Below, in pieces: positions 1-45,362 of a DNA stretch of 64,000 bases (positions are counted from its first letter, which is position 1; each line of letters begins with the position of its first letter). The stretch spans positions 192,001-256,000 of the forward strand of contig CAWDVE010000016.1 of NCBI GenBank assembly GCA_963805625.1, in the 5' to 3' direction. Under the pieces are notes generated by a model that was given only the letters and a program-made list of their open reading frames with translations, made no database searches and had not been told where the DNA came from. A program made the position numbers and the translations under genes. The DNA comes from an uncultured Candidatus Rokubacteria bacterium (GTDB lineage: Bacteria > Methylomirabilota > Methylomirabilia > Rokubacteriales > DASRDR01).

Positions 1-788
1 GCGCCCCGGCCCCGGCGGTCGAGGCGGACGGTAGGGCGCTCGCGCGCGCCGTGAGGGCCGAGGGAGTGCGGCGACTCTACGCCGACCACGGCTGGGCGAG
101 CCGCGTCGCCCTTGCCGATCCCGCGATCCGCGTTCCACCCGCCAACCTCCAGCTGGACGACTACGGCTTCAAGGGATCGGCGGCGATGCTGCTCCCGCCC
201 TTTCACTGGGAGGCCGGGACCGGAGTCCTGCTGGAGTCCGCCGATACTGAGGCCTTCGCCGAGGTGGCCCGCGCGGGCGGGCTGGCGTTCACCCAGCGGA
301 TTCTCGACGGGCTTGCGCTCTTCGTTCACGCGCCGGCCGCGCCGCCCGGGCCGCTCCTCGCGGCAAGCGCGCTCGGCGTGACCGCCGCGCGGCAGCCGAA
401 GCGCGCGGGCCTCGCGGTCGACGGGGATCCCGCGACGCGCTGGGCCACGGCGGGCCCGCGCGAGGCCGGCGACTGGTTTCGCGTGGACCTCCCGGCGGCC
501 CGATCGCTTCGCGGCGTGCGGCTCTCCGCGGACAACCCCGCCGACCTGCCGCCCGAGCTGGCCGTGGAGAGCTCGCGCGACGGCATGCACTGGGAGCACC
601 TCGCCGCGACGCTGCGGTCGGAGCACCAGTATCGATGGGCCGGCTTCGGCGTCCTCGACGAGGGTGCCATCGCCCTCAGGCTCGAGTTCCCGCCGGTCAC
701 GGTGAGGGCACTCCGCCTGGTGCTGCCGGCGGGTGACCCGGTGTTCGACTGGTCGATCAACGAGCTCGCCGTCTACGGCGGGGAATGA
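1..788 (+). CDS. C-terminal part of a protein with an F5/8 type C (discoidin) domain, probably a GT-C membrane glycosyltransferase like 24470-27250; 5' end lies outside the window
   Basis: AVDGDPATRWAT...WFRVDL...SSRDGMHW...VRALRL...WSINELAVY is a discoidin signature; resembles the discoidin region of the 24470-27250 protein. Confidence 0.65.
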   Translation, partial: APAPAVEADGRALARAVRAEGVRRLYADHGWASRVALADPAIRVPPANLQLDDYGFKGSAAMLLPPFHWEAGTGVLLESADTEAFAEVARAGGLAFTQRILDGLALFVHAPAAPPGPLLAASALGVTAARQPKRAGLAVDGDPATRWATAGPREAGDWFRVDLPAARSLRGVRLSADNPADLPPELAVESSRDGMHWEHLAATLRSEHQYRWAGFGVLDEGAIALRLEFPPVTVRALRLVLPAGDPVFDWSINELAVYGGE

Positions 789-1068
789 AGCCGCGTACGC
801 TTGGGAGCGCGCGCAATTGGCAGGAAAGGGGCACTACCAGGAAGCGCGCTGGAGGGTCTGGGTCCGCAACATGTTGCCCTCGCCGTGGGCGAGACGCGGC
901 CTGGGGAGTTTCAGGGGAAGACTCCCGTAGGCTTCGAGTTGGCCGCGTTCGCCGTGCAGGCGGGACGCCGGTCGGGAGGAGACGGTGGGAATTGAACCCG
1001 CGAGGCGGCGCGCCCCGCGAGGGAGATGACGCGCGGGGCCGTCGTCGTGGCGCCTGCCGGCGGGCCCC

Positions 1069-1077
1069 TGCTATACT
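1069..1077 (+). promoter_or_regulatory. Extended -10 element (TGCTATACT) of a probably leaderless promoter
   Basis: Lies 6 nt upstream of the ATG at 1084, with no Shine-Dalgarno sequence. Confidence 0.55.
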
Positions 1078-1083
1078 CGGCGC

Positions 1084-2070
1084 ATGCGCACGCTCGTCAC
1101 CGGCGGCACCGGGTTCACCGGCAGCCATCTCGTCCGGCGCTTGCTGGCGCGGGGCGATCAGGTGCGCGTTCTCGACGCCGCCCCGGGGCTGTTCCACGAC
1201 GAGCTCCAGCGTCTCGGCACGGAGATCACGCTCGGTAGCGTGACGGACAAGGCGCTCGTCGACCGGCTGGTGGCCGGGACCGACGTCGTCTTCCACCTCG
1301 CGGCCGCTTTCCGGAAGATCAACCTCCCCAAGCGGGAGTACTGGGAGGTCAACTGCCAGGGCACGCGCTACGTGGCCGAGGCGTGCCTCCGGCACCAGGT
1401 GCGCCGGCTCGTGTACTGCTCGACCCAGGGCGTGCACGGACACGTCGCCCACCCGCCCGGCGACGAGACGTCGCCGATCGCCCCGGAGGACTACTACCAG
1501 CAGACGAAGTACGACGGGGAGCAGGCGCTCTGGGAGGTCGCCCGCGGCGGCCTCGAGGCGAGCGTGGTCCGCCCCATGGGCATCTACGGCCCCGGTGACC
1601 CGGGCCGCTTCCTCATGCTCTACCGCGCGGTCCGGCGGGGGCGTTTCCTCATGTTCGGTGACGGTGAGACCTTCTATCATCCCTGCTACATCGACAACCT
1701 CGTCGACGCGTTCGAGCTGGCCGCGGAGCACCCGAAGGCCGTGGGCGAGACGTACCTGATCGGCGACGACCGCTACGTGTCGCTCAACGAGTTGGTGCGG
1801 ACGGTGGCGGAGAGCCTCGGGCAGCAGGTGAGGATCGTCCATCTCCCGTTCGCGCCGCTGTGGGCCGCCTCCGCTCTCTGCGAGGCGGTGCTCATGCCGC
1901 TCGGGGTCGAGCCGCCCCTGTTCCGGCGGCGGGCCGACTGGTTCCGCCAGACGCGCGCGTTCACCATCGACAAGGCGGTGCGGGAGCTCGGCTTCGTCGC
2001 CCGCATCCCCCTCGCGGAGGGCCTCCGGCGCACGGCGGCCTGGTATCGCGAGCACGGCTACCTCCGCTAG
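1084..2070 (+). CDS. NAD-dependent epimerase/dehydratase (extended SDR)
   Basis: TGGTGFTG Rossmann motif, HLAA, YQQTK catalytic YxxxK, IYGPGD. Confidence 0.9.
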   Translation: MRTLVTGGTGFTGSHLVRRLLARGDQVRVLDAAPGLFHDELQRLGTEITLGSVTDKALVDRLVAGTDVVFHLAAAFRKINLPKREYWEVNCQGTRYVAEACLRHQVRRLVYCSTQGVHGHVAHPPGDETSPIAPEDYYQQTKYDGEQALWEVARGGLEASVVRPMGIYGPGDPGRFLMLYRAVRRGRFLMFGDGETFYHPCYIDNLVDAFELAAEHPKAVGETYLIGDDRYVSLNELVRTVAESLGQQVRIVHLPFAPLWAASALCEAVLMPLGVEPPLFRRRADWFRQTRAFTIDKAVRELGFVARIPLAEGLRRTAAWYREHGYLR

Positions 2071-2072: not shown

Positions 2073-3956
2073 ATGTGCGGCATTGCCGGCGTCTTCGAGT
2101 TCCGCCCGGGGCAGGTGCCCCAGCCCCACGTTCTCGAGGCGATGGGGAAGGTGATCGAGCACCGCGGCCCCGACCAGGGCGCCGTCTTCCAGGATGGCCC
2201 CATCGGGCTCGTCGCGCGGCGCCTCCGGATCATCGACCTGTCACCCGCCGGATCCCAGCCCATCCCGAACGAGGACGGCACGATCCAGCTCGTCTACAAC
2301 GGCGAGATGTTCAACCACGAGGGGCTGCGCCAGGAGCTCCAGGCGCTCGGGCATCGCTTCCGGGGGCGCTGCGATTCGGAGGTCGTCGTCCACGCCTACG
2401 AGGCGTGGGGCCCGCGCTGCGTGGAGCGCTTCCGCGGGTTCTTCGCGTTCGCGCTCTGGGACAGCGTCCGCGGGGAGCTCCTGCTGGCGCGCGACCGGAT
2501 CGGGATCAAACCGCTCTACTACGCGTGGTCCGAGGACCGCCTGGTCTTCGGCTCGGAGATCAAGGCGATCCTCGAGCACCCGGACGTCCCCCGGGCCATG
2601 GACCTCCAGTCCATGTACCACTACCTGGGCTACGAGTTCGTGCCCGGGCCGGCGACCATGTTCCAGGGGATCCGGAAGCTCCCGCCGGGCACCATCGCGC
2701 GAGTCCGCGGCGGCCGCCTCGAGATCGAGCCCTACTGGGAGCTGCGGTTCGAGGACGCGCCCGACGACGCGGCGACGCTCGCCCGGCGGGTCCGTGAGAC
2801 GTTCCGGGACTCCGTGCACGCGTGGATGATGTCGGACGTCCCGGAGGGTGTGTTCCTCTCGGGCGGGCTCGACTCGACGGCGGTTCTGGCCTTCACGCGT
2901 GAGGCTACGACCGGGCCGCTCCCCACCTTCACGCTCGGCTACGACGATCCCTCGTTCAGCGAGTGGGAGTACGCGCGCGAGGCCGCGCGCTACTACGGGA
3001 CCGAGCACCGCGAGATCCGCGTCCCCCCGATCACGCCCGACGTGATCGAGCAGACCGTCTGGCACCTCGACGAGCCGATGACGGACCTCTCGGCCGTGCC
3101 CCTGTTCCTCCTGTGCCGGGAGGCGCGGCGGGATGTCACCGTCTGCATGTCGGGCGAGGGCGGGGACGAGGTCTTCGTCGGCTACGACCGGTTCGTCGCC
3201 TCGAAGGCCGAGCGATTCTATCGGATGCTGCCGCGCGCGCTCCGGCGCGGGGTGATCGAGCCCCTGGTCATGCGGCTCCCGGATCAGGAGCAGAAGAAGG
3301 GGCCGGTCGTCGTCCTCCGGCGGTTCATCGAAGGGGCCCGCCTCCATCCGGACGCCCTCCACATGCGCTGGCAGTACTTCGGCTCGGATGCCCTCGACGC
3401 GCGTCTCTTCCGGGAGACCGTGCTTCGCTCGGTCGACCGGGACCGCTTCGCGCCGATCCGCCAGGCGGCCGAGCGCTGCAACTCGCGCCGGCAGCTCGAC
3501 CGCGAGATCTTCGTGGACACTCGGTTCACGATGCCGGATTCGGTGCTGATGAAGGTCGACAAGATGTCGATGGCGCACGCGCTCGAAATCCGAGTGCCGC
3601 TGCTGGACCACCACCTGATCGAGCTGGCCGCCTCGATTCCACCGCGTCTGAAATTCCCGGGGTTCCGGACCCGCGCGATCTACCGGCGAGCGCTCGAGGG
3701 CGTGCTGCCCCCGAGGATCCTTGGACGCGGCAAGCAGGGCTACAGCCTTCCGCTCAAGCAGTGGCTCCGGAACGAGCTCCGCGACTACATGGTGCAGCTG
3801 CTCCGGGGATCCGAGGTGGTACGCGCGCACTTGGACCCGTCGGGTGTCGAGGCGCTCATCGGCGAGCACCTCGCTCGCCGCGCGAACCACAACCATACCC
3901 TCTGGGCCCTCATCAACCTGACGCTGTGGCACCGTCGGTTCATTGAGGGAGCCTGA
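2073..3956 (+). CDS. asnB: Asparagine synthase (glutamine-hydrolysing)-like amidotransferase
   Basis: Starts MCGIAG at 2073 (Ntn Cys); HRGPD, ARDRIGIKPLYY, LSGGLDS, SGEGGDE, KVDKMSMAHALE, KQGY. Confidence 0.93.
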   Translation: MCGIAGVFEFRPGQVPQPHVLEAMGKVIEHRGPDQGAVFQDGPIGLVARRLRIIDLSPAGSQPIPNEDGTIQLVYNGEMFNHEGLRQELQALGHRFRGRCDSEVVVHAYEAWGPRCVERFRGFFAFALWDSVRGELLLARDRIGIKPLYYAWSEDRLVFGSEIKAILEHPDVPRAMDLQSMYHYLGYEFVPGPATMFQGIRKLPPGTIARVRGGRLEIEPYWELRFEDAPDDAATLARRVRETFRDSVHAWMMSDVPEGVFLSGGLDSTAVLAFTREATTGPLPTFTLGYDDPSFSEWEYAREAARYYGTEHREIRVPPITPDVIEQTVWHLDEPMTDLSAVPLFLLCREARRDVTVCMSGEGGDEVFVGYDRFVASKAERFYRMLPRALRRGVIEPLVMRLPDQEQKKGPVVVLRRFIEGARLHPDALHMRWQYFGSDALDARLFRETVLRSVDRDRFAPIRQAAERCNSRRQLDREIFVDTRFTMPDSVLMKVDKMSMAHALEIRVPLLDHHLIELAASIPPRLKFPGFRTRAIYRRALEGVLPPRILGRGKQGYSLPLKQWLRNELRDYMVQLLRGSEVVRAHLDPSGVEALIGEHLARRANHNHTLWALINLTLWHRRFIEGA

Positions 3957-4938
3957 GCGCCTGCGCCGGGAAGGCGGCCGCCGCGGGCTTCGCCTCCGGA
4001 TCGCGGTCAGTCTCGCCCTCTTCCTCCTGCTCGTCCTCTTCGTCGACTGGGGCCGCCTGGGCGCGCGCCTCGGCACCGCGGATCCCCTCCTCATACTGGC
4101 CGTCGTGGCGCTGGCGACGGCGGACCGGCTCCTCATGGCGTGGAAGTGGTGGCTCCTCGTGCGGAGCCGGGACGCGGCCCTCGGGCTCTGGGCAGCGGTG
4201 CGCGCCTATTACCTGGCATCGTTCGCGGGGTACTTCCTTCCCATGACGGTGGGTGCCGACGCGGTCCGGATCGGGGCCCTCAGCGGCACGAGCCGCCCGG
4301 CGGTGCTGGTGGCGTCGGTGGTGCTCGAGCGCCTGATCGGCGCGCTTGCCCAGGCCGTGCTCGCCGTGCTGTCGGTGGCGACGCTGGTGACGCTCGGTCT
4401 CGGGGCCCGGGTGGGCCCGGCCGAGCGCTGGGGTCTGGGCGCGGCCGTCGCGCTCGCGTTCGGCGCATTCCCGTTCTCGTTCCCGGCCGCGCGGTGGGTC
4501 GCGGCGCGCCTCGGCTCCGGCGGAGGGTGGCGGAGGGCGCTTCGCGCGCTGGCCGAGCAGTACGCGGGGTATGGGGCGTCGACGGGCCTGCTGTGCGCGT
4601 TCTTCGCGCTGACCCTCCTCGAGGGCGGGTTTCCGGTCTCGATTCACTACGTGGCGGGGCGGGCGCTGGGCCTCGATCCGGGCTGGAGCTTCTACATCGC
4701 CACCGTGCCGCTCGTCTACTTGGTGGCTCGGCTGCCGGTGAGCCTGGGGGGCCTCGGGTTCCTGGAGCTGTCGTTCGTGTCACTGGCAGGCCTGCTCGGC
4801 GTGGGGTGGACGGACGCCTTTGCCATCACAGGCCTCGCGACCGCGCTGTACCTGGTGGCGCTCGTCCCCGGAGCGGTGCTCTACCTCATCCCGGTGCCGG
4901 CCTCCATCCGGTCCACGCCCCGGGAACGGCTGCCATGA
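3943..4938 (+). CDS. Lysylphosphatidylglycerol synthase TM / flippase-like membrane protein
   Basis: Polytopic; FLPMTVGADAVR, SVVLERL, LPVSLGGLGFLE motifs. Confidence 0.8.
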   Translation: MREPERLRREGGRRGLRLRIAVSLALFLLLVLFVDWGRLGARLGTADPLLILAVVALATADRLLMAWKWWLLVRSRDAALGLWAAVRAYYLASFAGYFLPMTVGADAVRIGALSGTSRPAVLVASVVLERLIGALAQAVLAVLSVATLVTLGLGARVGPAERWGLGAAVALAFGAFPFSFPAARWVAARLGSGGGWRRALRALAEQYAGYGASTGLLCAFFALTLLEGGFPVSIHYVAGRALGLDPGWSFYIATVPLVYLVARLPVSLGGLGFLELSFVSLAGLLGVGWTDAFAITGLATALYLVALVPGAVLYLIPVPASIRSTPRERLP

Positions 4939-5744
4939 GTGTCGAGGCCGGAGGCCGTCCGATCAGCCCTGGTGCGCGGAGCGAGGGCGGCCCGCCGAGC
5001 GCGAGCGACCGGCTGGCGGACGTTCCGGGGGCCCTGTTCGACCCGCGGCGGTCGAAGGTCGAGCGGTACGCCGACCTCGTTGTCGGCGAGCAGGGGTGGT
5101 GGCCACTCCTCCGCTACGAGCTCGTCATGCTGCTCGCCTCCTGGGTTCCCGGTGCCCTCGGCCTAGTGCTACGCGGCTGGCTGTATCCGTGGCTGCTCGG
5201 CGCCTGCGGTCGGAACGTCAGCTTCGGGACGGGTGTCGTGCTGCGGCACCCCGGGAAGATCCGGATCGGCAATGACGTCGCCATCGACGACGGATGCGCG
5301 CTGGACGCCAAGGGCTCGGCAAACCGCGGCATCGAGATCGGCTCTCGGGTGTTCCTCGGCCGGCACACCCTCCTCGCGTGCAAGGAGGGCGACATCGTGC
5401 TTGAGGATGGCGTCAACGTCTCGTACAACTGCACGGTATTCTCCGCATCGTCGGTCCGGATCGGGGCGGAGACCTTGCTGGCCGCCTACTGCTACGTGGT
5501 GGGCGGCGGGCACGACTTCGACCGGGCGGACGTTCCCGTCGTGCAGCAGGCGCGACCCTCCCGGGGGATCGCCGTGGGTCCGGGCGGCTGGCTCGGGGCG
5601 GGCGCGATCGTGCTCGACGGCGTCACCGTCGGGCCGAGCGCCATCGTGGGGGCACACGCGGTCGTGACGCAGGACGTTCCCGGCTATGCGATCGTTGCGG
5701 GCGCCCCGGCCCGCGTGGTCCGGGACCGGCGCCAGCCCGCATGA
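4935..5744 (+). CDS. Hexapeptide-repeat (left-handed beta-helix) acyltransferase
   Basis: ATG at 4935 overlaps the upstream stop; IRIGNDVAID repeats, WLGAGAIVLDGVTVG, AGAPARVVR. Confidence 0.88.
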   Translation: MSVEAGGRPISPGARSEGGPPSASDRLADVPGALFDPRRSKVERYADLVVGEQGWWPLLRYELVMLLASWVPGALGLVLRGWLYPWLLGACGRNVSFGTGVVLRHPGKIRIGNDVAIDDGCALDAKGSANRGIEIGSRVFLGRHTLLACKEGDIVLEDGVNVSYNCTVFSASSVRIGAETLLAAYCYVVGGGHDFDRADVPVVQQARPSRGIAVGPGGWLGAGAIVLDGVTVGPSAIVGAHAVVTQDVPGYAIVAGAPARVVRDRRQPA

Positions 5745-6850
5745 GCGCTCCGGCGACGGGCTCTCCGCCCGCCGTCCGGCCAGTGCCCTCGGGAGGGCCG
5801 GTCGCCGCGCGGCGCATGCCCCGCGGGCTGTTCCGTCTGGGCGTCGGGCTCCTGGTCTCGGGCGCCATCCTCGTCTACCTGTTCACGGTGCAGGGAGCCG
5901 ACCCCCGGGCGCTGGTCCCGCTCGTTCGAGCGATCTCGCTCCCGGGACTCCTGGCATACGTCGCCATCTCGGCCGTCGGCCTAGTCCTGCGCGCGCTGCG
6001 CTACCGCCTCCTTCTCGGCCGCCCCGTGCCGCTCTGGCCGCTCGTGCTGGTGACCGCGGTCCGCAACATGGCCGTCGACCTGATCCCCGCCCGGGCCGGG
6101 GCCGCCGCGAGCTATCTCTACCTGGTCACGGCCCGGCTCGGGCTCCCCCTCGAGGCCGGCGTCGCATCGTTCACGCTCTCGTTCATCCTCGACACACTCG
6201 CCGTGGCGCCGCTCCTCGTGCTCGCGCTGCTCGCCGTGGGGAACGCCCCCTTGCCGCCGGCCGTCCTCGTGGGCGGGAGCCTCGTGATCCTGCTCGGCTC
6301 CGGGGCCGCGCTCTGGGTGCTCGCCCCGATCCTCCGCCTCGGTGCGGTGGCGGCGGCCCGACTGCCGGGCCCCGTCGCCCGGCTGGTGCCGCTCTTCGGC
6401 GCGGCGGCGGGGGAGGTCGAGCGGCGCGAGCGCGCGCGCACCCTCGTGCCGGCCCTCGGTCTCTCGCTCCTCCTGCGACTCACGAAGTACGGCGCCTACT
6501 ACTGCTTGCTCCAGGCGCTCCTGGCCTCCCAGGACCAGCCGGGGCTCCAGTTCGGCTTTCTCCGCGTCTTCCTCTCGGTTGCGGGCGCGGAGATGGCCGC
6601 GTCCCTGCCGCTGCCGACCCTCATGAGCGTCGGCCCATACGAAGCGGCCGGCGCCGCGGGCTTCGCCTTCTGGCTCGGCCTGCCACGAGACCTCGCCACG
6701 CTCGCCGTGACCGCGTTCCACGGTCTGTCGCAGGTCCACGACTACGGGCTCGGGCTGCTCGCGCTCGTGTGGATCATGGCGACCCGCCCGCGCCGCCCTG
6801 TCGACCCAGGGTCGGATCGCGCGGCCGAGCGGTCTCTGCGGGATGCGTGA
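5741..6850 (+). CDS. Second flippase-like (LPG synthase TM family) membrane protein
   Basis: Polytopic; LRALRY, DLIPARAG, GPYEA motifs; ATGA coupling to upstream gene. Confidence 0.75.
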   Translation: MSAPATGSPPAVRPVPSGGPVAARRMPRGLFRLGVGLLVSGAILVYLFTVQGADPRALVPLVRAISLPGLLAYVAISAVGLVLRALRYRLLLGRPVPLWPLVLVTAVRNMAVDLIPARAGAAASYLYLVTARLGLPLEAGVASFTLSFILDTLAVAPLLVLALLAVGNAPLPPAVLVGGSLVILLGSGAALWVLAPILRLGAVAAARLPGPVARLVPLFGAAAGEVERRERARTLVPALGLSLLLRLTKYGAYYCLLQALLASQDQPGLQFGFLRVFLSVAGAEMAASLPLPTLMSVGPYEAAGAAGFAFWLGLPRDLATLAVTAFHGLSQVHDYGLGLLALVWIMATRPRRPVDPGSDRAAERSLRDA

Positions 6851-6972: not shown

Positions 6973-7932
6973 GTGATGCGGGAGACCGAGGTGGTCGAGG
7001 GCGCAGCGACGGATCCTGCCGTCGGTGGTCGGCCGTCGGGGTCACGCACGGCGACCGCGTGGCTCGACTACCTCCGGCCCCTCCGCTTCGACCACTGGAT
7101 CAAGAACCTCGTCGTTCCGGTCGGAAGCCTCCTGGCCCTGGCCGCCCACCGGTCCTACCCTAGCGGGACCAAAGTTGGTGCGATCGTCCTGGCGTTCGTC
7201 GTGTCCGGCCTGGTGTCGTCGGTCAACTATGCCGTGAACGAGATCCTGGACGCGCCGTTCGACGCGCGGCATCCGACGAAGCGGGATCGGCCCATCCCGT
7301 CTGGACGCGTACGTGTCGCGCCCCTCCTCGTCCTGACGGCCGCCGTCGCGCTCCTGGCGTTCGGAGTCTCATGGTGGCTCCTGCCCCCCGCCGCGCTCGG
7401 GGGCGCGGGCGCCCTGTTCGTCGCCGGGCTCGTGTACAATCTTCCGCCGCTCCGGCTCAAGGACTGGCCGTACCTCGACGCGGCCACCGAGTCCCTCACG
7501 AACCCGATCCGGATCGCGATCGGATGGCACGCCGTCGCCGCCGAGGCGCCTCCGGTGCTCCTGCTGGTCACCGTATGGGCCTTCGGGGCGTTCCTCATGA
7601 CCGGCAAGCGCCTGGCGGAGCTGAGGCTCCTCGGCGACCTCGCGGCGCGCTACCGCCCGACGTTCCAGGCGTACTCGGTGACGAGCCTGTTCGTCGTCCA
7701 GCTGGTCTACGCCCTGGCCGGCTTCGGAGCGCTCGCGCGTCTCGTGGTGACGCAGCGCCCGGAGGTGCTGCCCGCCCTCCCGCTGGTGGCGGTGCTTCTC
7801 GGCTGGGCGTTCAAGATGACCTTCGAGCCGGAGAGCCCCCTCATGGATCCGGAGCACCTGTACCGGCGCCCCATCTTCCTGCTCGTCGCCATCGCGGTCT
7901 TCGCCCTCCTGGTCGAGCTAGCCCTCGGCTAG
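6973..7932 (+). CDS. UbiA prenyltransferase family, decaprenyl-phosphate phosphoribosyltransferase (DPPR synthase)-like
   Basis: HWIKNL, NYAVNEILD..FDARHPTKRDRPIPSG, KRLAEL motifs characteristic of the Rv3806c-like subfamily. Confidence 0.8.
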   Translation: MMRETEVVEGAATDPAVGGRPSGSRTATAWLDYLRPLRFDHWIKNLVVPVGSLLALAAHRSYPSGTKVGAIVLAFVVSGLVSSVNYAVNEILDAPFDARHPTKRDRPIPSGRVRVAPLLVLTAAVALLAFGVSWWLLPPAALGGAGALFVAGLVYNLPPLRLKDWPYLDAATESLTNPIRIAIGWHAVAAEAPPVLLLVTVWAFGAFLMTGKRLAELRLLGDLAARYRPTFQAYSVTSLFVVQLVYALAGFGALARLVVTQRPEVLPALPLVAVLLGWAFKMTFEPESPLMDPEHLYRRPIFLLVAIAVFALLVELALG

Positions 7933-17179: not shown

Positions 17180-17230
17180 CAGCGCCTCATTGTAGCAGAG
17201 CGTTGCCGCGCGCCCGGCGGCTCGCGCGGG

Positions 17231-18121: not shown

Positions 18122-18130
18122 GACCCCATG

Positions 18131-19195: not shown

Positions 19196-19196
19196 C

Positions 19197-19661: not shown

Positions 19662-19692
19662 CGCTCGTTCACTCCGCTGCTGATGTGGCCGC

Positions 19693-21080: not shown

Positions 21081-21251
21081 CTGGAACGAGGGTGGCGCTG
21101 CGAGGTCGTGGTCAGCGCGGTGCGCCGGCGGCTCGTGGCGCCGGCCTTGCCGTTGTGGTTGGGCGTGGCGTCAGGTTGGCTCGACGGGGGAATGCTAGCG
21201 CCTGCGGCGCGACGCCCGCGCGGTAGATGGATTGCGATCCGCTGGATCGGC

Positions 21252-21840: not shown

Positions 21841-21876
21841 GGCGGGATAATCTCGTGAGAATTGTCGCGCCAACGC

Positions 21877-37986: not shown

Positions 37987-39315
37987 TCACGCTTCGTCTC
38001 CTCCGCCGTGGTGGAGCCGCCACCGGTGGGCGAGCCGCGCCACGCCCGTGTCGCGCACCCGGGAGCGCACGGCAAAGGCGTAGAAACGGCTGTGGTAGTC
38101 GTAGGGGTGGCCGTCGCGTGCGTGGACGGCCACGTCGAGGAGGTACTCTCCCTCGACCAGATCGAGTCGTTCGATCTGCATGGTGACCACGCCCTCGCCG
38201 TCGACCTTCCCGAACGCGAGTCCCTCCACCGCGGTGTTGGTCCCGTAGCAGCAGACCCCGTCCTTGCGGAAGACGCCGACGCCGAACACGGGATCCTCGA
38301 CCGGCCGATGCGCGCGGAAGGTGAGCTGGACGGCGCAGGGCTCCCCGGTCTCGAAGAGGTACCGCTCGTGACCGTCCCCGCCGGTGAGCTGGACGCGGAT
38401 CAGCTCGACCTCCCGGCTTCCCCAGCGCGCGGCGGTGCCCGTCCGGGCGAGCGCCTCGGCCTGCGAGTGCTCCACGCCGAGCGCCCGAGCTTCCTCGCGC
38501 GCTACGTGGTCCAGGTAGCGGCCCACGACCTCCCGGGTCTCGCCGTGCGCCTGGAGTTGCCCCCGGTCGAGCCACACCGTCTCGTCGCAGAGACGCTCGA
38601 TGCTGCCGAGGTCGTGGGAGACGAGCACGATCGTCTTCCCGCGCGCCTTGAACTCCTGAATCTTGCCCACGCACCGGTGCTGGAAGGCTTCGTCGCCGAC
38701 GGCCAGCACCTCGTCGATCAGAAGGATGTCCGGGTCCACCGTGACCGCGATCGCGAAGCCGAGCCGCATGTACATCCCCGACGAATAGGTCTTGACGGGG
38801 CTGTCGACAAAGGTCTCGAGCCCGGCGAAGCCGACGATCTCGTCGAACCGCGCGCGGATCTCCGCGCGGGAGAGGCCGAGCAGGACGCCGTTGATGTAGA
38901 TGTTCTCGCGCCCGGTGAACTCCGGATGGAAGCCGGCGCCGAGCTCGATCAGGGCGGACACCCGCCCGCACACGGAGACCTGACCGGCGGTCGGCTTGAG
39001 GATGCCCCCGAGCACCTTGAGCAGCGTGGACTTGCCGGAACCGTTCGAGCCGATGATTCCGACCATGCGCCCGCGGCCGAGGTCGAGGCTCACGTCCCGA
39101 AGCGCCCAGAGCTCCTCGCCCGAGAAGAGCCCGGGCCCGCCGTGCCCGACGAAGAGGCGGACGAAGAGGTCCTTCACGGTGGAGACCTGGCGCCCCCGAT
39201 AGAGCCGGAAGCGCTTCGAGACGTCCCGGAGGGAGATCGCGACGTCCTTCGGCGCTGGCGGCGCTGGCGGCGCTGGCGGCGCTGGCGGTGCCGGGCGCGC
39301 GGGGGTCCCGGTCAC
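37987..39315 (-). CDS. wzt: Polysaccharide ABC exporter ATPase with C-terminal carbohydrate-binding domain (Wzt)
   Basis: GSNGSGKST, ELGAGFHPE, YSSGM..RLGFA, DEVLAVGD, C-terminal Wzt_C beta domain. Confidence 0.92.
   Translation of the reverse strand: MTGTPARPAPPAPPAPPAPPAPKDVAISLRDVSKRFRLYRGRQVSTVKDLFVRLFVGHGGPGLFSGEELWALRDVSLDLGRGRMVGIIGSNGSGKSTLLKVLGGILKPTAGQVSVCGRVSALIELGAGFHPEFTGRENIYINGVLLGLSRAEIRARFDEIVGFAGLETFVDSPVKTYSSGMYMRLGFAIAVTVDPDILLIDEVLAVGDEAFQHRCVGKIQEFKARGKTIVLVSHDLGSIERLCDETVWLDRGQLQAHGETREVVGRYLDHVAREEARALGVEHSQAEALARTGTAARWGSREVELIRVQLTGGDGHERYLFETGEPCAVQLTFRAHRPVEDPVFGVGVFRKDGVCCYGTNTAVEGLAFGKVDGEGVVTMQIERLDLVEGEYLLDVAVHARDGHPYDYHSRFYAFAVRSRVRDTGVARLAHRWRLHHGGGDEA
39251..39286. 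repeat. 9-bp tandem repeat (GGCGCTGGC)x4 encoding Pro-Ala-Pro repeats at the Wzt N-terminus
   Basis: Four perfect copies visible in the sequence. Confidence 0.85.
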
Positions 39316-39319
39316 GGCG

Positions 39320-40126
39320 TCAGATCTCCTCGGCCAGGCTGTCGCGGAGGCGGTCGAACACCCACCAGCCACCGACCAGCGCGAGAGCCGCGCAGACGCT
39401 CACGGTTCCGAGGTGGATCCAGTGCGGCTCGCGGCCGAAGAAGAAGATGTTCTGGTAGCTCTGAACGAGCCCCGCGATCGGGTTCAAGAAGTAGAGCGGC
39501 CGGAGCGGCACGACCAGAGTCTCGCTCAGGTGGAGCGTCGTCGGCACGGTGGACACCGGATAGAGGATCGGCGTCAGGAAGAACAGCAGCGTCAGGCCGT
39601 TCGTCAGGATCTGCTCCACGTCCCGGAGATGGACGTTGAGCGCCGCCAGCGCCAGCGCGAGACCGGTGGTGAGGAGGAGCTGGAGGATGAGGAGCAGCGG
39701 CAGGAACAGCAGCACCGCGTGCGGGCGGATGCCAAAGACCAGGAGGAACCCGAAGAGGAGGGGAAGCGACAGCAGCATGTTGATCAGGTTCGCGAGGACG
39801 GAGACCAGCGGAAGCACCTCCGCCGGGAACAGGATCCGCTTGACCAACGTCCCCGAGGCTACGATGACGCCGGCGGCGTGACCGAGCGAGGACGAGAACC
39901 ACAGCCAGGGGAGGAGCCCGGAGAACAGGAACACCGCGTACCCCTCCATCGGCACCCGGAGGTAGATCGAGAACACGAGGGCGTACACCAGCATCAGGAG
40001 CAGCGGGTTCAGGAACGACCAGAGGAAGCCGAGGAAAGAGCCGCGGTAACGCGCCCGGAGCTCCCGCAGGACGAGCGTCCCGATCAGGGCGCGATGTCGG
40101 TACAGATCGGCGAGGTGTCCTACCAT
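39320..40126 (-). CDS. wzm: Polysaccharide ABC exporter permease (Wzm)
   Basis: RELRARYRGSFLGFLWSFLNPL, RDVEQI, FFLTPILYP, LNP. Confidence 0.92.
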   Translation of the reverse strand: MVGHLADLYRHRALIGTLVLRELRARYRGSFLGFLWSFLNPLLLMLVYALVFSIYLRVPMEGYAVFLFSGLLPWLWFSSSLGHAAGVIVASGTLVKRILFPAEVLPLVSVLANLINMLLSLPLLFGFLLVFGIRPHAVLLFLPLLLILQLLLTTGLALALAALNVHLRDVEQILTNGLTLLFFLTPILYPVSTVPTTLHLSETLVVPLRPLYFLNPIAGLVQSYQNIFFFGREPHWIHLGTVSVCAALALVGGWWVFDRLRDSLAEEI

Positions 40127-40162: not shown

Positions 40163-41107
40163 TCAGACCCGCCGGCGCCAATCGTCCAGCACGTCCTCGA
40201 GGCTCTGTCGGAACGAGATGGTGGGAGCCCAGCCCGTGAGCGCCCGGAGCCGGCTCGCATCCCCCATGAGGAGCGGGAGGTCGATGGGGCGAACGCGCGC
40301 GGCGACCTGGCGCACCTCGATTGGGCGCGCGGCGTACCCGAGGAACCCGTCGATCACCTCTTGGATCGACAGGGCCTTGCCCGAAGCGGCGTTGTAAGTC
40401 CTCCCGGGATCGCCTCGGGCCAGCAAGAGCCAGTACGCCCGCACCATGTCGCGGACGTCCGTGAAATCGCGCTGCGTCGTGGTGGTACCGACCTCGAGGA
40501 TCGCCGGCCCACGCCCCCGCTCGATCTCGGCGATCTGCCGGGCGACGTCGCTCCAGACGAAGCCGAGCCCCTGCCGGGGGCCGACGTGGTTGAAGGCGCG
40601 GACGATCACCAGCGGCAGCCCCTCTGAGCGGGCGTAGTACCCCGCGTAGAGCTCCTGAGAGGCCTTCGACAGCGCGTAGGGCGACCCCGGGGCCCAGCGG
40701 CGAGTTTCGGGGATCGGCTGCTCGGACTCGGGGACCACCCCGTAGACCTCGCCCGAGGAGACCATGAGGCAGGGAATCGGATGACGGCGCAGCCCCTCGC
40801 AGATCTGGTACGTGGCCTCGAGGTTCGTCCGGAGGACGTCTGCGCGAAGCGCCCACGAGGTGCCGACCACCGAGGCGCCCGCCAGGTGGAATACGCGGTC
40901 CGGGCGCATCGCTCGCAACACGTTGCCCGCGGCCCCGGGCTCCGTCAGGTCGCAGGCGACGGTGGTCACGTCCTTCTGCACCGCCGCCAGGTTGTCGGTC
41001 GGCGCGCCGGGCAGAACCGTGCCTACCACCTCCGCGCCCTCCCGCAGAGCCAGCTCCGCGAGGTGGCTCCCGGCGAAGCCCGCGATGCCGGTGATCAGGA
41101 CCTTCAC
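40163..41107 (-). CDS. GDP-sugar SDR, Rmd-like GDP-4-keto-6-deoxymannose reductase
   Basis: GIAGFAG, SSGEVYG, YALSK, FNHVGPRQ, RDFTDVRD. Confidence 0.75.
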   Translation of the reverse strand: MKVLITGIAGFAGSHLAELALREGAEVVGTVLPGAPTDNLAAVQKDVTTVACDLTEPGAAGNVLRAMRPDRVFHLAGASVVGTSWALRADVLRTNLEATYQICEGLRRHPIPCLMVSSGEVYGVVPESEQPIPETRRWAPGSPYALSKASQELYAGYYARSEGLPLVIVRAFNHVGPRQGLGFVWSDVARQIAEIERGRGPAILEVGTTTTQRDFTDVRDMVRAYWLLLARGDPGRTYNAASGKALSIQEVIDGFLGYAARPIEVRQVAARVRPIDLPLLMGDASRLRALTGWAPTISFRQSLEDVLDDWRRRV

Positions 41108-41119
41108 GGCAGGCGCAGC

Positions 41120-42073
41120 CTAGACGCGCCTTCGCCAGTGCTCGAGGAGGTCCTTGAGCGTGACCTCGAACGGGATCGTGGGCTCCCAGCCCGTGACGCT
41201 CCGGAACTTCGAGTAGTCACCGACGAGAAGGGGGACGTCGGACGGCCGCATCCGGGCGGGGTCCTCCCGCACTGTGACCGTCACGTGGGTGAGGCCGAGG
41301 AGGATGTCCAGCACCTGGCGCGCCGAATAGCCCCGCCCCGAGCAGATGTTGTAGACCTCCCCGGGGGCGCCGTGCTCGAGCGCCAGCCAGTAGGCCCGGA
41401 CCATGTCGCGCACGTCCGTGAAGTCCCGGACCGAGTCGAGGTTGCCCACCCGGACGTCGGGCTCGCGGACGCCCTTCTCGATCTCGGCGACCTGCCGGGA
41501 GAAGTTCGAGGTGACGAATACCTCGCCCCGCCGCGGGCCCGTGTGGTTGAACCCGCGCGTCCGGACCACGTGGAGCTGGTAGCTCTTCCAGTACTGGTAG
41601 GCCAGAAGATCCTGGGTCACCTTGGACACGGCGTAGGGGGAGAGCGGCCTGAGCGGGCTGTCCTCCCGGATCGGGACCTCGTGGGGCAGGACCAGTCCGT
41701 ACTCCTCGCTCGATCCGGCAATGTGGACGCGTGCGGGCAGCTCGAGATCGCGCATCGCCTCGAAGAGATTCACCTGGCCCATCACGTTGCCGTTCAAGGT
41801 CTCGCCGGGCGCCAGCCACGACGTGGGCACGTAGCTTTGGGCGGCCAGGTGGAAGATCCGGTCCGGGCGCACGTCGCGGAGCACGTGTCGGACGGCGCCT
41901 GCATCGCGCAGGTCGCACTCGACTCGCCGCACCCGGTCCCCGAGGTGCTCGACGTTCTCCAGGCGGCTCCGCCAACGGTGCATTCCGAAAACCTCGACGT
42001 CGCCGCGGGCGACAAGGTAGTCGGCCAGGTGGCTGCCTACGAAACCGGTGAATCCCGTGATGAGGACGCGCAT
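41120..42073 (-). CDS. GDP-mannose 4,6-dehydratase-like SDR (Gmd/Rmd family)
   Basis: GFTGFVG, HLAAQSYVPTSW, GSSEEYG, PYAVSK, FNHTGPRRG..FVT, GNLDSVRD. Confidence 0.8.
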   Translation of the reverse strand: MRVLITGFTGFVGSHLADYLVARGDVEVFGMHRWRSRLENVEHLGDRVRRVECDLRDAGAVRHVLRDVRPDRIFHLAAQSYVPTSWLAPGETLNGNVMGQVNLFEAMRDLELPARVHIAGSSEEYGLVLPHEVPIREDSPLRPLSPYAVSKVTQDLLAYQYWKSYQLHVVRTRGFNHTGPRRGEVFVTSNFSRQVAEIEKGVREPDVRVGNLDSVRDFTDVRDMVRAYWLALEHGAPGEVYNICSGRGYSARQVLDILLGLTHVTVTVREDPARMRPSDVPLLVGDYSKFRSVTGWEPTIPFEVTLKDLLEHWRRRV

Positions 42074-43182
42074 CACGAATCTCCCTCGAAGAAGCCGCGG
42101 ACGGCGGCGATCACGGCGTCGATCTCGTCGGGCCGAAGCTCGGGGAAGCAGGGGAGCGAGAGCACCTCCCGGGCGGCAGCCCACGCCGCGGGGAAGGGGG
42201 TCGCGTCGTAGCCCAGGTCACGGAACAGCGGCTGCGCCGGGATGGGAAGCGGGTAGTGACAGGCGGTACCGATTCCGGCGGCCGTCAGATGCGCGGCGAG
42301 GGCGTCCCGTTGAGGTGTGCGGATGGTGTACTGGTGGAACACGTGCGTAGCGCCGGGCCGCTCCACGGGCAGGACGATGGGAAGTCCGGCGAGCCCTTCG
42401 CTGTAGCTCGCGGCGACGGCCTGTCGGGCCAGGGTCCACGCCGGCAAGTGGCGTAGCTTCACCCGGAGGATGGCCGCCTGCAGCTCGTCCAGTCGCGCGG
42501 TCCACCCGAGCTCGGCGTGACGGTACTTCTGCGTCTGCCCGTGGTTCCGGGCCAGCCGCAGGTGCGCGGCGAGCGCCGCGTCGGTCGTCGTCACCAAGCC
42601 CGCGTCGCCGTAGGCCGCGAGGTTCTTCGTGGGGTAGAAGCTGAAGGCCGCCGCCCGGCCATGCCCGCCCACGGGACGACCGCCGAGCGTCGCCCCGAAT
42701 GCCTGGGCGGCGTCTTCCACGACGTGGACCCCGTGAGCGTCCGCGAGGACCCGGAGTGGCCCCATGGCGGCCGGGAGCCCGTAGAGGTGGACTGCGAGGA
42801 TCACCCGCGTCTTGGGCGTGATGGCGGCCGCGACGCGGTCCGGATCGAGCGTGAGTGTGGCCGGCTCGACGTCGACGAAGACGGGCCGGGCCCCGAGCTC
42901 GAGCGCCGCCGTGGCGGAGGCGACGAAGGAGAAGGCGGGGGTCACCACCTCGGTGTCCGGGCCGACGCCGAGCGCCCGCAGGGTCAGCTTGATCGCGTCC
43001 GAGCCCGAGCCCAGGCCGATCGCGTGGCTCACCCCCAGGTAGGCCGCGCATTCCGTCTCGAACGCCTCGCCCTCGGGGCCCAGGATGAACTGGCCGCCGC
43101 GCAGGACGTGCCGGAGCGCCGAGTGGATCTCCGGTTCGAGCTGCTCGTACTGGCGGGTGAGGTCGAACTGGGGGATCTTCAT
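42073..43182 (-). CDS. DegT/DnrJ/EryC1/StrS aminotransferase (WbpE/FdtB-like subgroup)
   Basis: MKIPQFDL, FILGP, EDAAQAFGA, SFYPTKNL..YGDAG, RLDELQAA, LSLP. Confidence 0.9.
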   Translation of the reverse strand: MKIPQFDLTRQYEQLEPEIHSALRHVLRGGQFILGPEGEAFETECAAYLGVSHAIGLGSGSDAIKLTLRALGVGPDTEVVTPAFSFVASATAALELGARPVFVDVEPATLTLDPDRVAAAITPKTRVILAVHLYGLPAAMGPLRVLADAHGVHVVEDAAQAFGATLGGRPVGGHGRAAAFSFYPTKNLAAYGDAGLVTTTDAALAAHLRLARNHGQTQKYRHAELGWTARLDELQAAILRVKLRHLPAWTLARQAVAASYSEGLAGLPIVLPVERPGATHVFHQYTIRTPQRDALAAHLTAAGIGTACHYPLPIPAQPLFRDLGYDATPFPAAWAAAREVLSLPCFPELRPDEIDAVIAAVRGFFEGDS

Positions 43183-45362
43183 TGAAAGCCGGTGAACCCC
43201 CGCCCGAAGCCGTATTGCCCCAGCTCGAGCAGGTTGATGCTGATCCGGAACTCGTCCTCGTCGACCCGGTCGATGAAGGCCGCGGTGATGGCCCAGCACT
43301 GCTCGCGGAACTCGACCTCGAGCCGGTTCTCGATGACGGTGCCGGTGTCGATGTTGTAGTCGCTCGAGAACCGGGCGGTCCAGCGCGAGCCAATCTTGGC
43401 CTCGATCGAACCCTGGATGAAGACGAGCTTTCCGTCCTCGCCGTGGCGCGTGCCGAACACCGCGCGCCAGCGCGCCGCCTCGTAGGAGAAGTCGGTCGTG
43501 GCGGTCGTAACGTTGTACTCGTAGGGGTCGAAGGACGCCGTTCCGCGGAAGCGGACGCCGTACACGGGCTCGAGGATCAGGTCTGCGAGGAGATCCGAGA
43601 GCCGCTTCGCCGTGACGGTCGTGGTCGTCGTGGGTGTCGCGGTCGACGTCGTGGGCGTCCCGAAGACCGTCGTCGAGATCGGGTTGGGCTCGATCGTGTA
43701 GGTCTGGCTGAGGGTGAAGCGGATGACCTCCCACACGCGCCCCGGGCTGTCGTCCTGGCCGACGGCGCGCGCCTTGAGCCGGTTCGTCAGGGAGTAGTTG
43801 ACCGTGTTGCCCGGCGTGATGGTATCGATCCCGTCCCACTGGGGCAGGTCCTTCGAGTCGTTCCCGTCCAGGAAGTTGTAGGTCACGCGTGGCTCGATCA
43901 GGTGCTGGAGCTTCTGGATGCCGAAGGCCCCGTCGAGGTCGAACACGCGTTGCGCGCGTGCGTCGAAGTCGGCGCCCGCCTCGAAGAGCGAACGCACGGT
44001 GAATTTCTTCTCCGTGTCCTCGACGACGAACCCCTGGACCTCCTTGGTGCCGATGACCCGCGTGTCGTACATGGTCTCGCGAAAGCCGACTCGCGGCGTG
44101 ATCGTGAAGAGGCCCCCGGGCGACAGGGGATAGGACACGCGGGGCGTCACGTCGAGGCGCTGGCCCGCGGAGCCGATATCGCGCACGAAGTTGTTGTAGG
44201 AGCTGTCCATCTCGAAGAGGAGCCCGGGCAGCCAGGGCACGGGTTGCTGGAAGGCGTTGAGCCGCAGCTCGGGGAGGCGCTGCAGCTCGATCGACTCGTC
44301 GGTCGTGAGGTCCTGGTAGAAGAAGAGCCGGCCGAAGAAGTTCCACTTTTCCCAGCGCTGGGTGAGCGAGACGTTCGACTCGAGGCGCTGCGCGCCCCGC
44401 TGGTCGAGGCTGTCCCCGAACTCGCTGAGGAACTGGTCGTCGCTGACCCGGGCGACGTCCGCCTTGAGGACCAGCCGCGGGGTGATCACCTCCTCGTGCC
44501 GGAGGCTCGCCACCCACCGGTCGGGGCCATGGTCCGGCGACTCCTCGTCGTCGTGGAGGTAGAAGCCGTCGATCTCGCCCCTGGAGCCCTCCTTTCGGAC
44601 GTAGCGGTATGTCGCGCCGAGCCCGAACCCGCGCTTCTCGAAGTAGGTCGGCGACAGCGTGAGATCCTGGCTGTCGGACAGCACGAAGTAGATCGGCTGG
44701 CGGACGGAGAAGCCCTTGTCGGTGCTGGTCCCGAAGGTCGGCGTGAGGAGTCCGCTGTGGCGGTCCTTGCGCAGGCTCGTCGCGAAGAAGGGGATGAAGG
44801 GGACGAGCGGGATCTTCCAGACCCAGAACGAGGCGTTGGTTCCCCACATGTAGTCGTCGAGATAGGCGGTAGCCGAGCCGAGACGGACGGACCACGCCGG
44901 GGTCTCTTCCTCGCACGTCGTGAAGACCCCCCCCGCGATGCGATAGGCCTTGTCCCCGAACCGCTCCATGCGGTTCCCGCCGAAGAAGAAGTGCGGCTCG
45001 GCGGCGGCCGCTGCCTTGTACACGACGCCGGTGCCCGACCGGAGGTTGTACTCGATGCGCTCGCCGGTGAGCCGGTCGCGCCCGTCGAACAGGACCACGC
45101 GGCCGGTCGCGACGGCCTCGCTGGTCTCCGTGTTGATCTCCACGCGGTCGGCCTCGAGGCGCACGTCCCCCTGCTCGATCTGGACGTTCCCCTCGGCGAG
45201 GAGGAGCTTCTCGCGGTCCAGATTCTCGACACGGTCCGCGTACACGGTGACCGGGGTGCCGGCCTCGAGGGAGAGCCGCTGCCGCTCCTGACCCCGGGCG
45301 AGACTCGGAAGGAGGGCGAGCCACGCGACCACCATGAACCAGACGAAACGCGGTACGGGCAC
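43179..45362 (-). CDS. lptD: LPS-assembly outer membrane protein LptD
   Basis: Signal peptide, OstA-like N-terminal domain, FTTC...PAW, R.SGLL.P, LQRLPEL, HLIEP, CWAI; GTG start after GGAGG. Confidence 0.88.
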   Translation of the reverse strand: MPVPRFVWFMVVAWLALLPSLARGQERQRLSLEAGTPVTVYADRVENLDREKLLLAEGNVQIEQGDVRLEADRVEINTETSEAVATGRVVLFDGRDRLTGERIEYNLRSGTGVVYKAAAAAEPHFFFGGNRMERFGDKAYRIAGGVFTTCEEETPAWSVRLGSATAYLDDYMWGTNASFWVWKIPLVPFIPFFATSLRKDRHSGLLTPTFGTSTDKGFSVRQPIYFVLSDSQDLTLSPTYFEKRGFGLGATYRYVRKEGSRGEIDGFYLHDDEESPDHGPDRWVASLRHEEVITPRLVLKADVARVSDDQFLSEFGDSLDQRGAQRLESNVSLTQRWEKWNFFGRLFFYQDLTTDESIELQRLPELRLNAFQQPVPWLPGLLFEMDSSYNNFVRDIGSAGQRLDVTPRVSYPLSPGGLFTITPRVGFRETMYDTRVIGTKEVQGFVVEDTEKKFTVRSLFEAGADFDARAQRVFDLDGAFGIQKLQHLIEPRVTYNFLDGNDSKDLPQWDGIDTITPGNTVNYSLTNRLKARAVGQDDSPGRVWEVIRFTLSQTYTIEPNPISTTVFGTPTTSTATPTTTTTVTAKRLSDLLADLILEPVYGVRFRGTASFDPYEYNVTTATTDFSYEAARWRAVFGTRHGEDGKLVFIQGSIEAKIGSRWTARFSSDYNIDTGTVIENRLEVEFREQCWAITAAFIDRVDEDEFRISINLLELGQYGFGRGFTGFQ

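Follow-up and report, generated by a model that had tools for sequence, protein, structure and literature searches.

The 64,000-nucleotide stretch of Candidatus Rokubacteria DNA analysed here (the window, G000:C16:192001-256000) was found to carry an envelope glycan locus, in which a polysaccharide pathway dependent on a transporter of the ATP-binding cassette (ABC) type is joined to a set of large membrane glycosyltransferases of the GT-C type. On balance, the locus probably directs the synthesis of an ABC-exported, probably lipopolysaccharide (LPS)-bound polysaccharide, to which several GT-Cs add side sugars in the periplasm, most likely before its ligation to lipid A. As judged from the comparisons below, it is likely a scaled-up form of a design already known from Citrobacter, the three-component periplasmic glycosylation. 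The number of enzymes, the mixing of cores and tails, the type of flippase and a gene core shared across phyla are new here.

Setting of the locus

The genome (7.27 Mb, about 70% GC, rated 99.9% complete) was inventoried with a hexamer gene caller and Pfam/NCBIfam scans; its close relatives carry the labels Ca. Rokubacteria or Methylomirabilota. A diderm envelope has been predicted for Rokubacteria (Becraft 2017, PMC5712423, in the part of the report available to us). LpxC was present in 39 of the 41 genomes searched. Six GT-C genes were located within the window and a seventh, GTC-0, just upstream; the others were named GTC-1 (1-788), GTC-2 (7942), GTC-3 (10638), GTC-4 (13091-16040), GTC-5 (19693) and GTC-6 (24470). 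Three of the six are intact, GTC-1 begins upstream of the window, GTC-4 is frameshifted and GTC-5 is a relic. The locus consists of two convergent operons and runs about 9 kb further upstream, where GTC-0 (with a YfhO match), three GT2 genes and a third LPG_synthase_TM gene were detected. A GT2 fused to a class I methyltransferase (L001:11869-13311) also lies upstream of the GT-C slots and is conserved in the relatives read. The coordinates are presented in Table 1.

Fold and first-loop aspartate of the GT-Cs

Searches of PDB sequences with the membrane cores resulted in weak matches, so that a comparison of structures was needed. AlphaFold2 models were obtained for GTC-6 (51-row alignment; predicted local distance difference test, pLDDT, 90.7) and GTC-3 (84 rows, pLDDT 95.2). 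The Foldseek matches of the GTC-6 model were AftD, ArnT, AglB and STT3, and AftD was the top match of both models (E 1.7e-14 for GTC-3). In the structural comparison of GTC-6, which covers residues 3-653, the best match of the core was ArnT (GT83) with Z 28.7, a root-mean-square deviation (rmsd) of 4.2, 442 aligned residues and 12% identity, while AglB, ALG12 and STT3 scored within 2-4 Z of ArnT. Residues 507-653 matched CBM32/galactose-oxidase N-domains with Z about 18. For residues 1-551 of GTC-3, the comparison with STT3 gave Z 19.4 at an rmsd of 5.2 over 481 aligned residues, and that with AftD gave Z 17.6 at an rmsd of 4.6 over 471; residues 555-681 and 685-818 were each aligned to carbohydrate-binding modules (CBMs; Z 13-14).

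The aspartate of the first external loop was conserved in three families: D43 of GTC-6 in 51/51 rows, D37 of GTC-2 in 69/69, and D50 of GTC-3 in 130/142, with 11 gaps. Conserved Asp motifs are also kept by the orthologues of GTC-0, GTC-1 and GTC-4; the WYDE loop of GTC-1 was present in 9/10 orthologues, the tenth gene call beginning downstream of the loop. By their models, GTC-3 and GTC-6 are GT-C_A proteins, and the aspartate is predicted to act in catalysis; GTC-0, GTC-1, GTC-2 and GTC-4 were assigned to GT-C_A by homology. The first-pass annotation had proposed both the GT-C fold and the acidic residue, and both were recovered, the fold with Z 28.7 to ArnT for GTC-6 and Z 18-19 to STT3/AftD for GTC-3. 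Oligosaccharyltransferases are marked by a WWDYG-type motif. WWD or WxDYG was found in 0/51, 0/69 and 0/142 alignment rows (0/262 in all), and Pfam STT3 had no match in the genome (control 4/14). Membership in the oligosaccharyltransferases (STT3/AglB/PglB, GT66) was therefore rejected.

Two core families with exchangeable tails

Two core families can be distinguished among the GT-C genes, combined with five or more layouts of the tail. The GTC-2 core was homologous to that of GTC-3 (hhalign P 99.3), and GTC-1, whose PMT_2 match exceeds the cut-off, was a paralogue of GTC-6 (E 1e-33). The hhalign comparison of GTC-6 with GTC-2 was not significant (P 6.6); thus, the GT-Cs of the locus do not make up a single gene family of recent origin. 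GTC-3 and GTC-4 had no Pfam or NCBIfam match. GTC-0 matched YfhO (PF09586) with a score of 43.7 against a cut-off of 28.5 bits, the best stretch being C-terminal; weak YfhO matches were obtained with 5/34 of the GTC-3/4 family, none of them with GTC-2 or GTC-3 themselves.

The large polytopic genes predicted by the first-pass annotation at 7942-10617 (+), 10638-13094 (-) and 24470-27250 (-), and the partial one at 1-788, were confirmed together with their distinct tails: two F5/8 domains in GTC-1 (32% identical to each other), an ILEI domain in GTC-2, two CBM-like sandwiches in GTC-3, and F5/8, weak TPR and beta domains in GTC-6. The ILEI domain was closest to that of POMGnT1 (5ggj, E 2e-12), a type of domain that binds sugar. 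At another site of the genome (C20, E 4e-15), a PMT-type core carries a tail of the GTC-3 type as well. In a relative, a run of GTC-6-like genes was observed to include a fusion of a PMT-type GT-C with an alpha/beta hydrolase (L050:12233-15295, G016).

Broken genes

The reading frame at 13091, listed earlier as a GT-C gene of its own, does belong to a GT-C, but as the C-terminal half of one gene at 13091-16040 that is split by a frameshift near 14132. The gene was intact (979-990 aa) in 5 relatives, and the single bases at 13820 and 14134 were absent from contigs of close strains; the frameshift is therefore probably an assembly error. Its reading as a separate soluble CBM protein was rejected, the frame being half of a frameshifted GT-C gene.

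The gene at 19693, taken in the first-pass annotation for a large GT-C-like gene, turned out to be an error-ridden, strain-variable remnant. The counterparts of the surrounding 3.7-kb insert in G019 are an intact PMT-type gene, an oxidoreductase and a PD40 gene, to which it could be aligned. In blastn, the remnant had 66 gap openings in 1457 bp against the intact PMT-type gene, whereas four neighbouring genes of comparable identity had 4-8 in 1-1.9 kb. Because blastn is noisy at low identity (73-83 gap openings for GTC-2 against its G019 paralogues at 65-67%), this control was limited to genes at 78-81% identity. The insert was absent in 7 relatives, in which the gap between the rmlC-like and radical SAM genes is 98-420 bp. 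Near-identical contigs bridged it in 3/4 runs; the missing contig cover over 22600-22983 proves nothing either way. The stretch at 21850-22350 has 23% GC in a 70% GC genome, the insert holding 1 of only 3 windows below 30% GC among 36,300, and is probably a sequencing artefact. The insert is best read as the poor consensus of a strain-variable cassette, and an intact gene at 19693 was rejected.

Candidate donor synthases and flippases

The three candidate donor synthases proposed earlier, two DPM1-like GT2s and a DPPR-synthase-like UbiA, were confirmed by homology. The UbiA protein (319 aa) has the UbiA domain only, and its sole PDB match was a DPPR synthase of the Rv3806c type (8j8j, E 5.8e-16). 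An ArnC-like GT2 was detected upstream of the window (E 1e-64, below the cut-off). An ALO/DprE1-type domain (PF04030, used as a proxy for DprE1) had 0 matches in the 99.9%-complete genome, with a control that includes Corynebacterium. The arabinan-type route was rejected on this result.

The UbiA gene was present in 13/21 genomes of the family, and a GTC-2 homologue follows directly in 11 of these 13. The exceptions were G017, in which a 42% identical paralogue precedes it, and G019, in which about 9 kb or more separates the copies from it. In the 8 genomes that lack the UbiA gene, three of which are 68-83% complete, GTC-2 homologues above 54% identity were not found; this identity gap is thin, since adjacent copies outside the genus are only 55% identical. 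Neither gene was found in G003 (98% complete) or G004 (95%). GTC-0 and its GT2 occurred together in 7 relatives and were jointly missing from 3, so that 10/11 relatives covering the slot were concordant; the discordant one was G004. The expected co-conservation of GT-Cs with donor synthases was thus seen in the synteny survey of the relatives.

GtrA (PF04138) had 0 matches in the genome (control 8/14), and no GtrA/SMR- or MATE-type flippase was found in the locus; outside the locus, MATE and ArnEF were not searched for. In the absence of GtrA, the LPG_synthase_TM genes, of which the genome has 9 matches, became the candidate flippases. The two flippase-like proteins noticed at the outset correspond to the LPG_synthase_TM genes of the window, and wzm, wzt with a Wzt_C domain, and lptD were likewise confirmed. 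A PD40 (TolB-like) propeller was observed fused to LPG_synthase_TM in L065 (6622-8706). A separate PD40 gene lies next to LPG_synthase_TM in G019 and on C24 of the genome analysed (168454-170833), and a remnant at 22880-23120 of the window.

Probable polysaccharide export arm

The right arm of the locus, with lptD, an aminotransferase, Rmd-like SDRs (short-chain dehydrogenases/reductases), wzm/wzt, a methyltransferase and four GT4s, reads as an ABC-dependent polysaccharide pathway by its gene families. Between lptD and the radical SAM gene, the genes form one closely packed run on the minus strand, with no gap exceeding 97 bp. The gene set expected for ABC-transporter-dependent O-polysaccharide was recovered: Wzm, Wzt with a CBM, a candidate terminator (by a crude coiled-coil score) and cytoplasmic glycosyltransferases. 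The Rmd-like SDRs matched 2pk3 with E 1.5e-90 and 4.9e-62. No ligase or initiating transferase gene was detected within the window by the inventory scans. At the genome level, lipid A synthesis and ligation are represented by LpxC, lptD and four Wzy_C/ligase-like matches.

Conservation among relatives and genome-wide survey

Across the genus, the order of the locus was largely kept in 8/9 relatives (76-80 kb read in each), G004 being rearranged, and the number of GT-Cs per locus was 4 to at least 8. The GTC-1 query matched in 20/20 genomes of the family and 0/17 of the sister family f2. The corresponding values were 20/20 and 1/17 for the GTC-3/4 profile, and 17/20 and 0/17 for the acetyltransferase. 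Genomes of the family had 6-22 PMT_2 matches each, those of f2 1-13. Among the genomes searched, f2 (G021-G040) keeps LpxC and is almost without both GT-C families and the acetyltransferase, pointing to a differing envelope inside one order. A ligase-like gene beside the locus was found only in G019; a 634-aa gene beside the G016 locus was considered as a ligase and dropped, having no similarity to ligases.

The genome holds 37 GT-C-like reading frames, fragments included, many of them without a nearby GT2, 32 strong GT2 matches and 4 Wzy_C matches. Orphan paralogues of GTC-1/6 (C17:826818, C16:385237, C10:1515707, C19:233084) have unrelated neighbours or lie far from a strong GT2, which suggests a shared donor pool. 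At least three wzm/wzt systems are probably present. The second (L069/L070, C12:13001-53000) includes a pair of GT-Cs that belong to the GTC-2/3 superfamily, as well as two ligase-like genes, a PF00953 initiating-transferase-like gene and a DUF2142 protein; a probable third pair lies at C13:655774-657864.

Core shared across phyla

The GTC-3/4 profile matched 23,533 representatives (50% identity) at E ≤0.001 and 793 at 1e-30. A scan seeded with 11 distant homologues, a seed biased to Desulfobacterota-like sequences, resulted in 53 loci with flanks that stop at 10 kb. Kept were 26 loci, 25 of at least 10 kb and L065 from Kiritimatiellae, and 28 short ones were dropped; L121 is probably rokubacterial (80% identity). 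Protein names in these loci include Desulfocapsa, Desulfobulbaceae, Thermodesulfobacteriota and Desulfarculus. AsnB was found in 15 of the 26, the acetyltransferase in 15, SDR in 14 and wzm/wzt in 7, where the GTC-3/4 homologue sits behind wzm-wzt. AsnB had 13 matches of at least 44% identity compared with 41% for the best in-genome paralogue, and SDR 10 matches of at least 48% compared with 33%. When the loci were collapsed to 16 groups, two or more of AsnB, SDR, acetyltransferase and LPG_synthase_TM were carried by 12, wzm/wzt or the methyltransferase by 6, and UbiA by none. The core of GT-C, AsnB, SDR, acetyltransferase and LPG_synthase_TM, often with wzm/wzt, recurs in the sulfate-reducing Desulfobacterota and in Kiritimatiellia.

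A recurring same-strand operon was observed with the order ligase-like, SDR, SDR, wzm, wzt, methyltransferase, GT4, GTC-3/4, GT4, AsnB, SDR, acetyltransferase, LPG_synthase_TM. It was whole or partial in the Desulfobacterota-labelled L108, L110, L114, L126 and L128, with pieces in the Kiritimatiellae L065. The ligase-like gene stands first in the wzm-wzt operon of 4 loci, recognised by Pfam in two of them and by similarity in the other two; the GT-C of L117 comes after lpxB-lpxK-lpxC.

Table 1. Features of the locus; positions are counted from the first nucleotide of the window.
Feature	Position	Strand	Remarks
GTC-1	1..788	+	C-terminal 261 aa of a GT-C_A protein (918 aa) starting at G000:C16:190032; PMT_2-like core, two F5/8 (CBM32-like) domains
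SDR epimerase/dehydratase (epim1)	1084..2070	+	part of the cross-phylum core
AsnB-type amidotransferase	2073..3956	+	part of the cross-phylum core
LPG_synthase_TM protein, candidate lipid-sugar flippase	3943..4938	+	
Hexapeptide acetyltransferase	4935..5744	+	
Second LPG_synthase_TM protein	5741..6850	+	PD40 propeller fusion in one or more distant homologues
UbiA-type polyprenyl-phosphate phosphoribosyltransferase-like protein (DPPR synthase-like)	6973..7932	+	no fused phosphatase domain
GTC-2	7942..10617	+	891 aa; GT-C core homologous to GTC-3; C-terminal ILEI domain
GTC-3	10638..13094	-	818 aa; GT-C_A core (1-551) and two CBM-like beta-sandwiches
GTC-4	13091..16040	-	GTC-3 paralogue; frameshifted in this assembly, intact in relatives
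GT4, RmlD-like reductase, SDR epimerase, RmlC-like cupin	16009..19709	-	
Strain-variable, error-ridden insert	19693..23385		remnants of a PMT-type GT-C (GTC-5), Gfo/Idh/MocA oxidoreductase and PD40 protein; AT-rich stretch
Radical SAM/SPASM protein	23386..24426	-	
GTC-6	24470..27250	-	926 aa; ArnT-like GT-C_A core, CBM32-like domain, helical TPR-like part (weak TPR match), C-terminal beta domain
DPM1-like GT2, candidate polyprenyl-phosphate sugar synthase	27247..27948	-	5mlz E 1.4e-31; overlaps GTC-6 start by 4 nt
Two DegT-type aminotransferases, second DPM1-like GT2 (30334-31059), methyltransferase	28008..31784	-	
Four GT4 glycosyltransferases	31826..36591	-	likely cytoplasmic backbone assembly
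Methyltransferase with coiled-coil-like segment, candidate chain terminator	36549..37889	-	crude heptad score only
wzt (with Wzt_C domain) and wzm	37987..40126	-	
Two Rmd-like SDRs and DegT-type aminotransferase	40163..43182	-	putative GDP-6-deoxy-sugar supply
lptD	43179..45362	-	head of the minus-strand run; overlaps next gene by 4 nt

Other features of the window

The radical SAM/SPASM gene, possibly coding for a sugar-modifying enzyme, was 81-99% identical in the relatives and was found near distant GTC-3/4 homologues in 4/26 loci. The tRNA-His (2817-2902) and tRNA-Arg (45646-45743) called by ARAGORN fall inside the AsnB and a cupredoxin frame, respectively, and are probably false. A cluster of an MttB-family methyltransferase, a corrinoid protein and a homocysteine S-methyltransferase at 53050-56174 is conserved in the relatives. 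The Kup potassium transporter is divided into two reading frames (58730-60597), probably by another frameshift.

Discussion

From the gene identities, folds and linkage given above we infer the donors, the flipping step and the acceptor of the following pathway. The Rmd-like SDRs, the aminotransferases and the four GT4s would assemble a 6-deoxy/amino-sugar chain in the cytoplasm, which is probably methyl-capped and, as the transporter family suggests, exported by Wzm/Wzt. By homology, the DPM1-like GT2s and the DPPR-synthase-like UbiA would load single sugars on polyprenyl phosphate. The LPG_synthase_TM proteins may then flip the lipid-linked sugars in place of the missing GtrA, which is the weakest step, and each GT-C would transfer one sugar via its first-loop Asp. 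The CBM-like tails likely keep the chain near the enzyme and raise the efficiency; in the first-pass annotation, the appended domains were hypothesised to select the acceptor. The likely pairs are UbiA with GTC-2 (for a pentofuranose), the upstream GT2 with the YfhO-type GTC-0, and the GT2 at 27247 with GTC-6. The GT-C genes appear to come and go at fixed slots, like serotype-converting cassettes.

Several results weigh against this polysaccharide-tailoring pathway. The locus has no ligase, and a phosphatase that would act on the phosphoribose donor was not seen. Among the distant loci, 19/26 have no wzm/wzt within 10 kb and 0/26 a UbiA gene, and the co-occurrence counts come from kin and are hence not independent tests. 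The 37 GT-C-like reading frames, many of them far from glycan loci, are many for one polysaccharide. The fold of GTC-3 is as near to the protein-acting STT3/AglB/DPY19 as to the glycan-acting AftD, GTC-6 is nearest to the lipid-A-acting ArnT, and wzm/wzt with a ligase-like gene also occur in surface (S)-layer glycosylation.

Some or all of the GT-Cs may instead glycosylate proteins (pilins, S-layer or periplasmic proteins), either sugar by sugar like TfpW or by moving the Wzm/Wzt glycan to protein, an alternative that is conceivable, if clearly the lesser. It would explain why STT3, AglB, PglB, Pmt4 and DPY19 are among the top folds and why the GTC-3/4 profile matches an STT3 chain (E 4.7e-5); the TPR-like part of GTC-6, the ILEI domain closest to the protein-glycan enzyme POMGnT1, and the conservation across phyla, which fits a general modification, are also in its favour. 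TfpW of P. aeruginosa serves pilin by a similar donor route (bioRxiv 10.1101/2020.04.19.049825, as far as covered by the part available). However, the oligosaccharyltransferase motif and the Pfam STT3 domain were not found in the alignments and the genome, respectively, the locus is without a substrate protein gene, and its operon is headed by lptD. That the ArnT-like GTC-1 and GTC-6 put DegT-made amino sugars directly on lipid A or core, and only GTC-2, GTC-3 and GTC-4 act on the chain, is considered unlikely. ArnT was indeed the best GTC-6 match, immediately upstream there are two aminotransferase genes and two for DPM1-like GT2s, and the ArnC-like GT2 is located upstream of the window. Yet the identity to ArnT is 12%, with AglB/ALG12/STT3 close behind in Z, the eight paralogues per genome with CBM32 tails suit a larger glycan acceptor, and no ArnA/ArnD/ArnEF-like gene was found in the locus, arn genes not having been searched genome-wide. 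Mixed cases are possible.

The two convergent operons, the rearrangement in G004, the many orphan paralogues and the several wzm/wzt systems of the genome could also be expected if the locus were a parking site of unrelated envelope genes, with GT-Cs that serve separate glycans and have no tie to this wzm/wzt. This is very unlikely, because the linkage of GTC-3/4 with wzm-wzt-methyltransferase-GT4 and AsnB-SDR-acetyltransferase-LPG_synthase_TM recurs in Desulfobacterota as one same-strand operon, and the acetyltransferase and both GT-C families show the same family-level distribution. A wider proposal is that GTC-3/4, AsnB, SDR, acetyltransferase, twin LPG_synthase_TM and wzm/wzt form an undescribed envelope pathway common to Rokubacteria, Desulfobacterota and Kiritimatiellia, with LPG_synthase_TM as a new flippase class. 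A very large, uncharacterised GT-C_A superfamily would there build branched periplasmic glycans stepwise on LPS or proteins, its swappable lectin tails ordering the steps, as a Golgi- or arabinan-like line in a diderm. We regard this as speculative and rather improbable.

The first-pass annotation had put the locus forward as a candidate for an undescribed system, but the same logic is already characterised in a Gram-negative O-antigen locus, that of Citrobacter youngae O1/O2 (Kelly 2024, PMC11127046, cited here from the part available to us). There, wzm/wzt, a polyprenyl-phosphoribose synthase (PPPRS, ORF15), a flippase (ORF14) and a CBM-bearing GT-C (ORF12, GT136) were described, the last three forming a three-component pentofuranosylation, and the CBM of GT136 binds the acceptor but is dispensable. 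The parallel to mycobacterial arabinan synthesis was drawn in the same paper; of the mycobacterial-like assembly in an LPS-type envelope suggested for our locus, this parallel stands, already published, whereas the arabinan route falls with the missing ALO/DprE1-type domain. The Rokubacterial locus resembles that of Citrobacter in its Gram-negative setting, wzm/wzt with a CBM, methyltransferase-type terminator, GDP-6-deoxy-sugar genes, polyprenyl-phosphoribose synthase, and GT-C_A with a first-loop Asp and C-terminal CBM, compared by description and not by the ORF12 sequence. In contrast, Citrobacter has one GT-C, a MATE flippase and a PPPRS fused to a HAD phosphatase, whereas Rokubacteria have 4 to 8 or more GT-Cs from two core families, LPG_synthase_TM as the candidate flippase, a UbiA without a fused phosphatase and, additionally, GT2-type donors.

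A GT2 polyprenyl-phosphate-sugar synthase with a GT-C, gained and lost like a cassette, is shared with the GtrA/GtrB/Gtr* systems and Klebsiella galactosylation (PMC11127046, same part). The likeness to CsbB/GtcA/YfhO of Firmicutes, from partly available sources, consists of GT2 with GT-C, GTC-0 matching YfhO above the cut-off. Unlike Gtr-type systems, no GtrA-family gene was found, and there are many GT-Cs with large tails. AftD, the top Foldseek match of both models, and EmbA/B/C of mycobacteria share GT-C with CBMs, a DPPR-synthase-like donor enzyme and several GT-Cs per pathway; the differences are the LPS-type envelope, the absence of a DprE1-type ALO domain from the matches, and an identity of only 15-17%. 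GTC-6 differs from ArnT by its CBM32, TPR-like and beta tails, and no arn operon is found in the locus. TfpW of P. aeruginosa, the GT-C of pilin arabinosylation in this Gram-negative bacterium, is likewise supplied through a polyprenyl-pentose route, but requires DprE1/E2 and a GtrA-like flippase (bioRxiv 10.1101/2020.04.19.049825, same part). The DprE1-type and GtrA families were not found in the genome analysed, and DprE2 was not searched.

Literature searches, sparse in subscription journals, returned nothing on GT-C in Rokubacteria or GT-C expansion in uncultured phyla, and nothing relevant on PF03706 with flippase or on AsnB/wzm/LPG synthase/O-antigen. To our knowledge, each locus of the known Gram-negative periplasmic side-chain systems has a single GT-C. 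In the present case, one locus was found to have 4 to 8 or more and one genome more than 30, from two core families with exchangeable tails. The locus provides donor-enzyme pairs that can be tested (UbiA with GTC-2), a candidate for a new class of flippase and founding members for unnamed GT-C families, and the conserved operon in Desulfobacterota genera is a place where the system could be studied. If the proposed pathway is true, the abundant soil Rokubacteria would diversify their surface mainly outside the cytoplasm.

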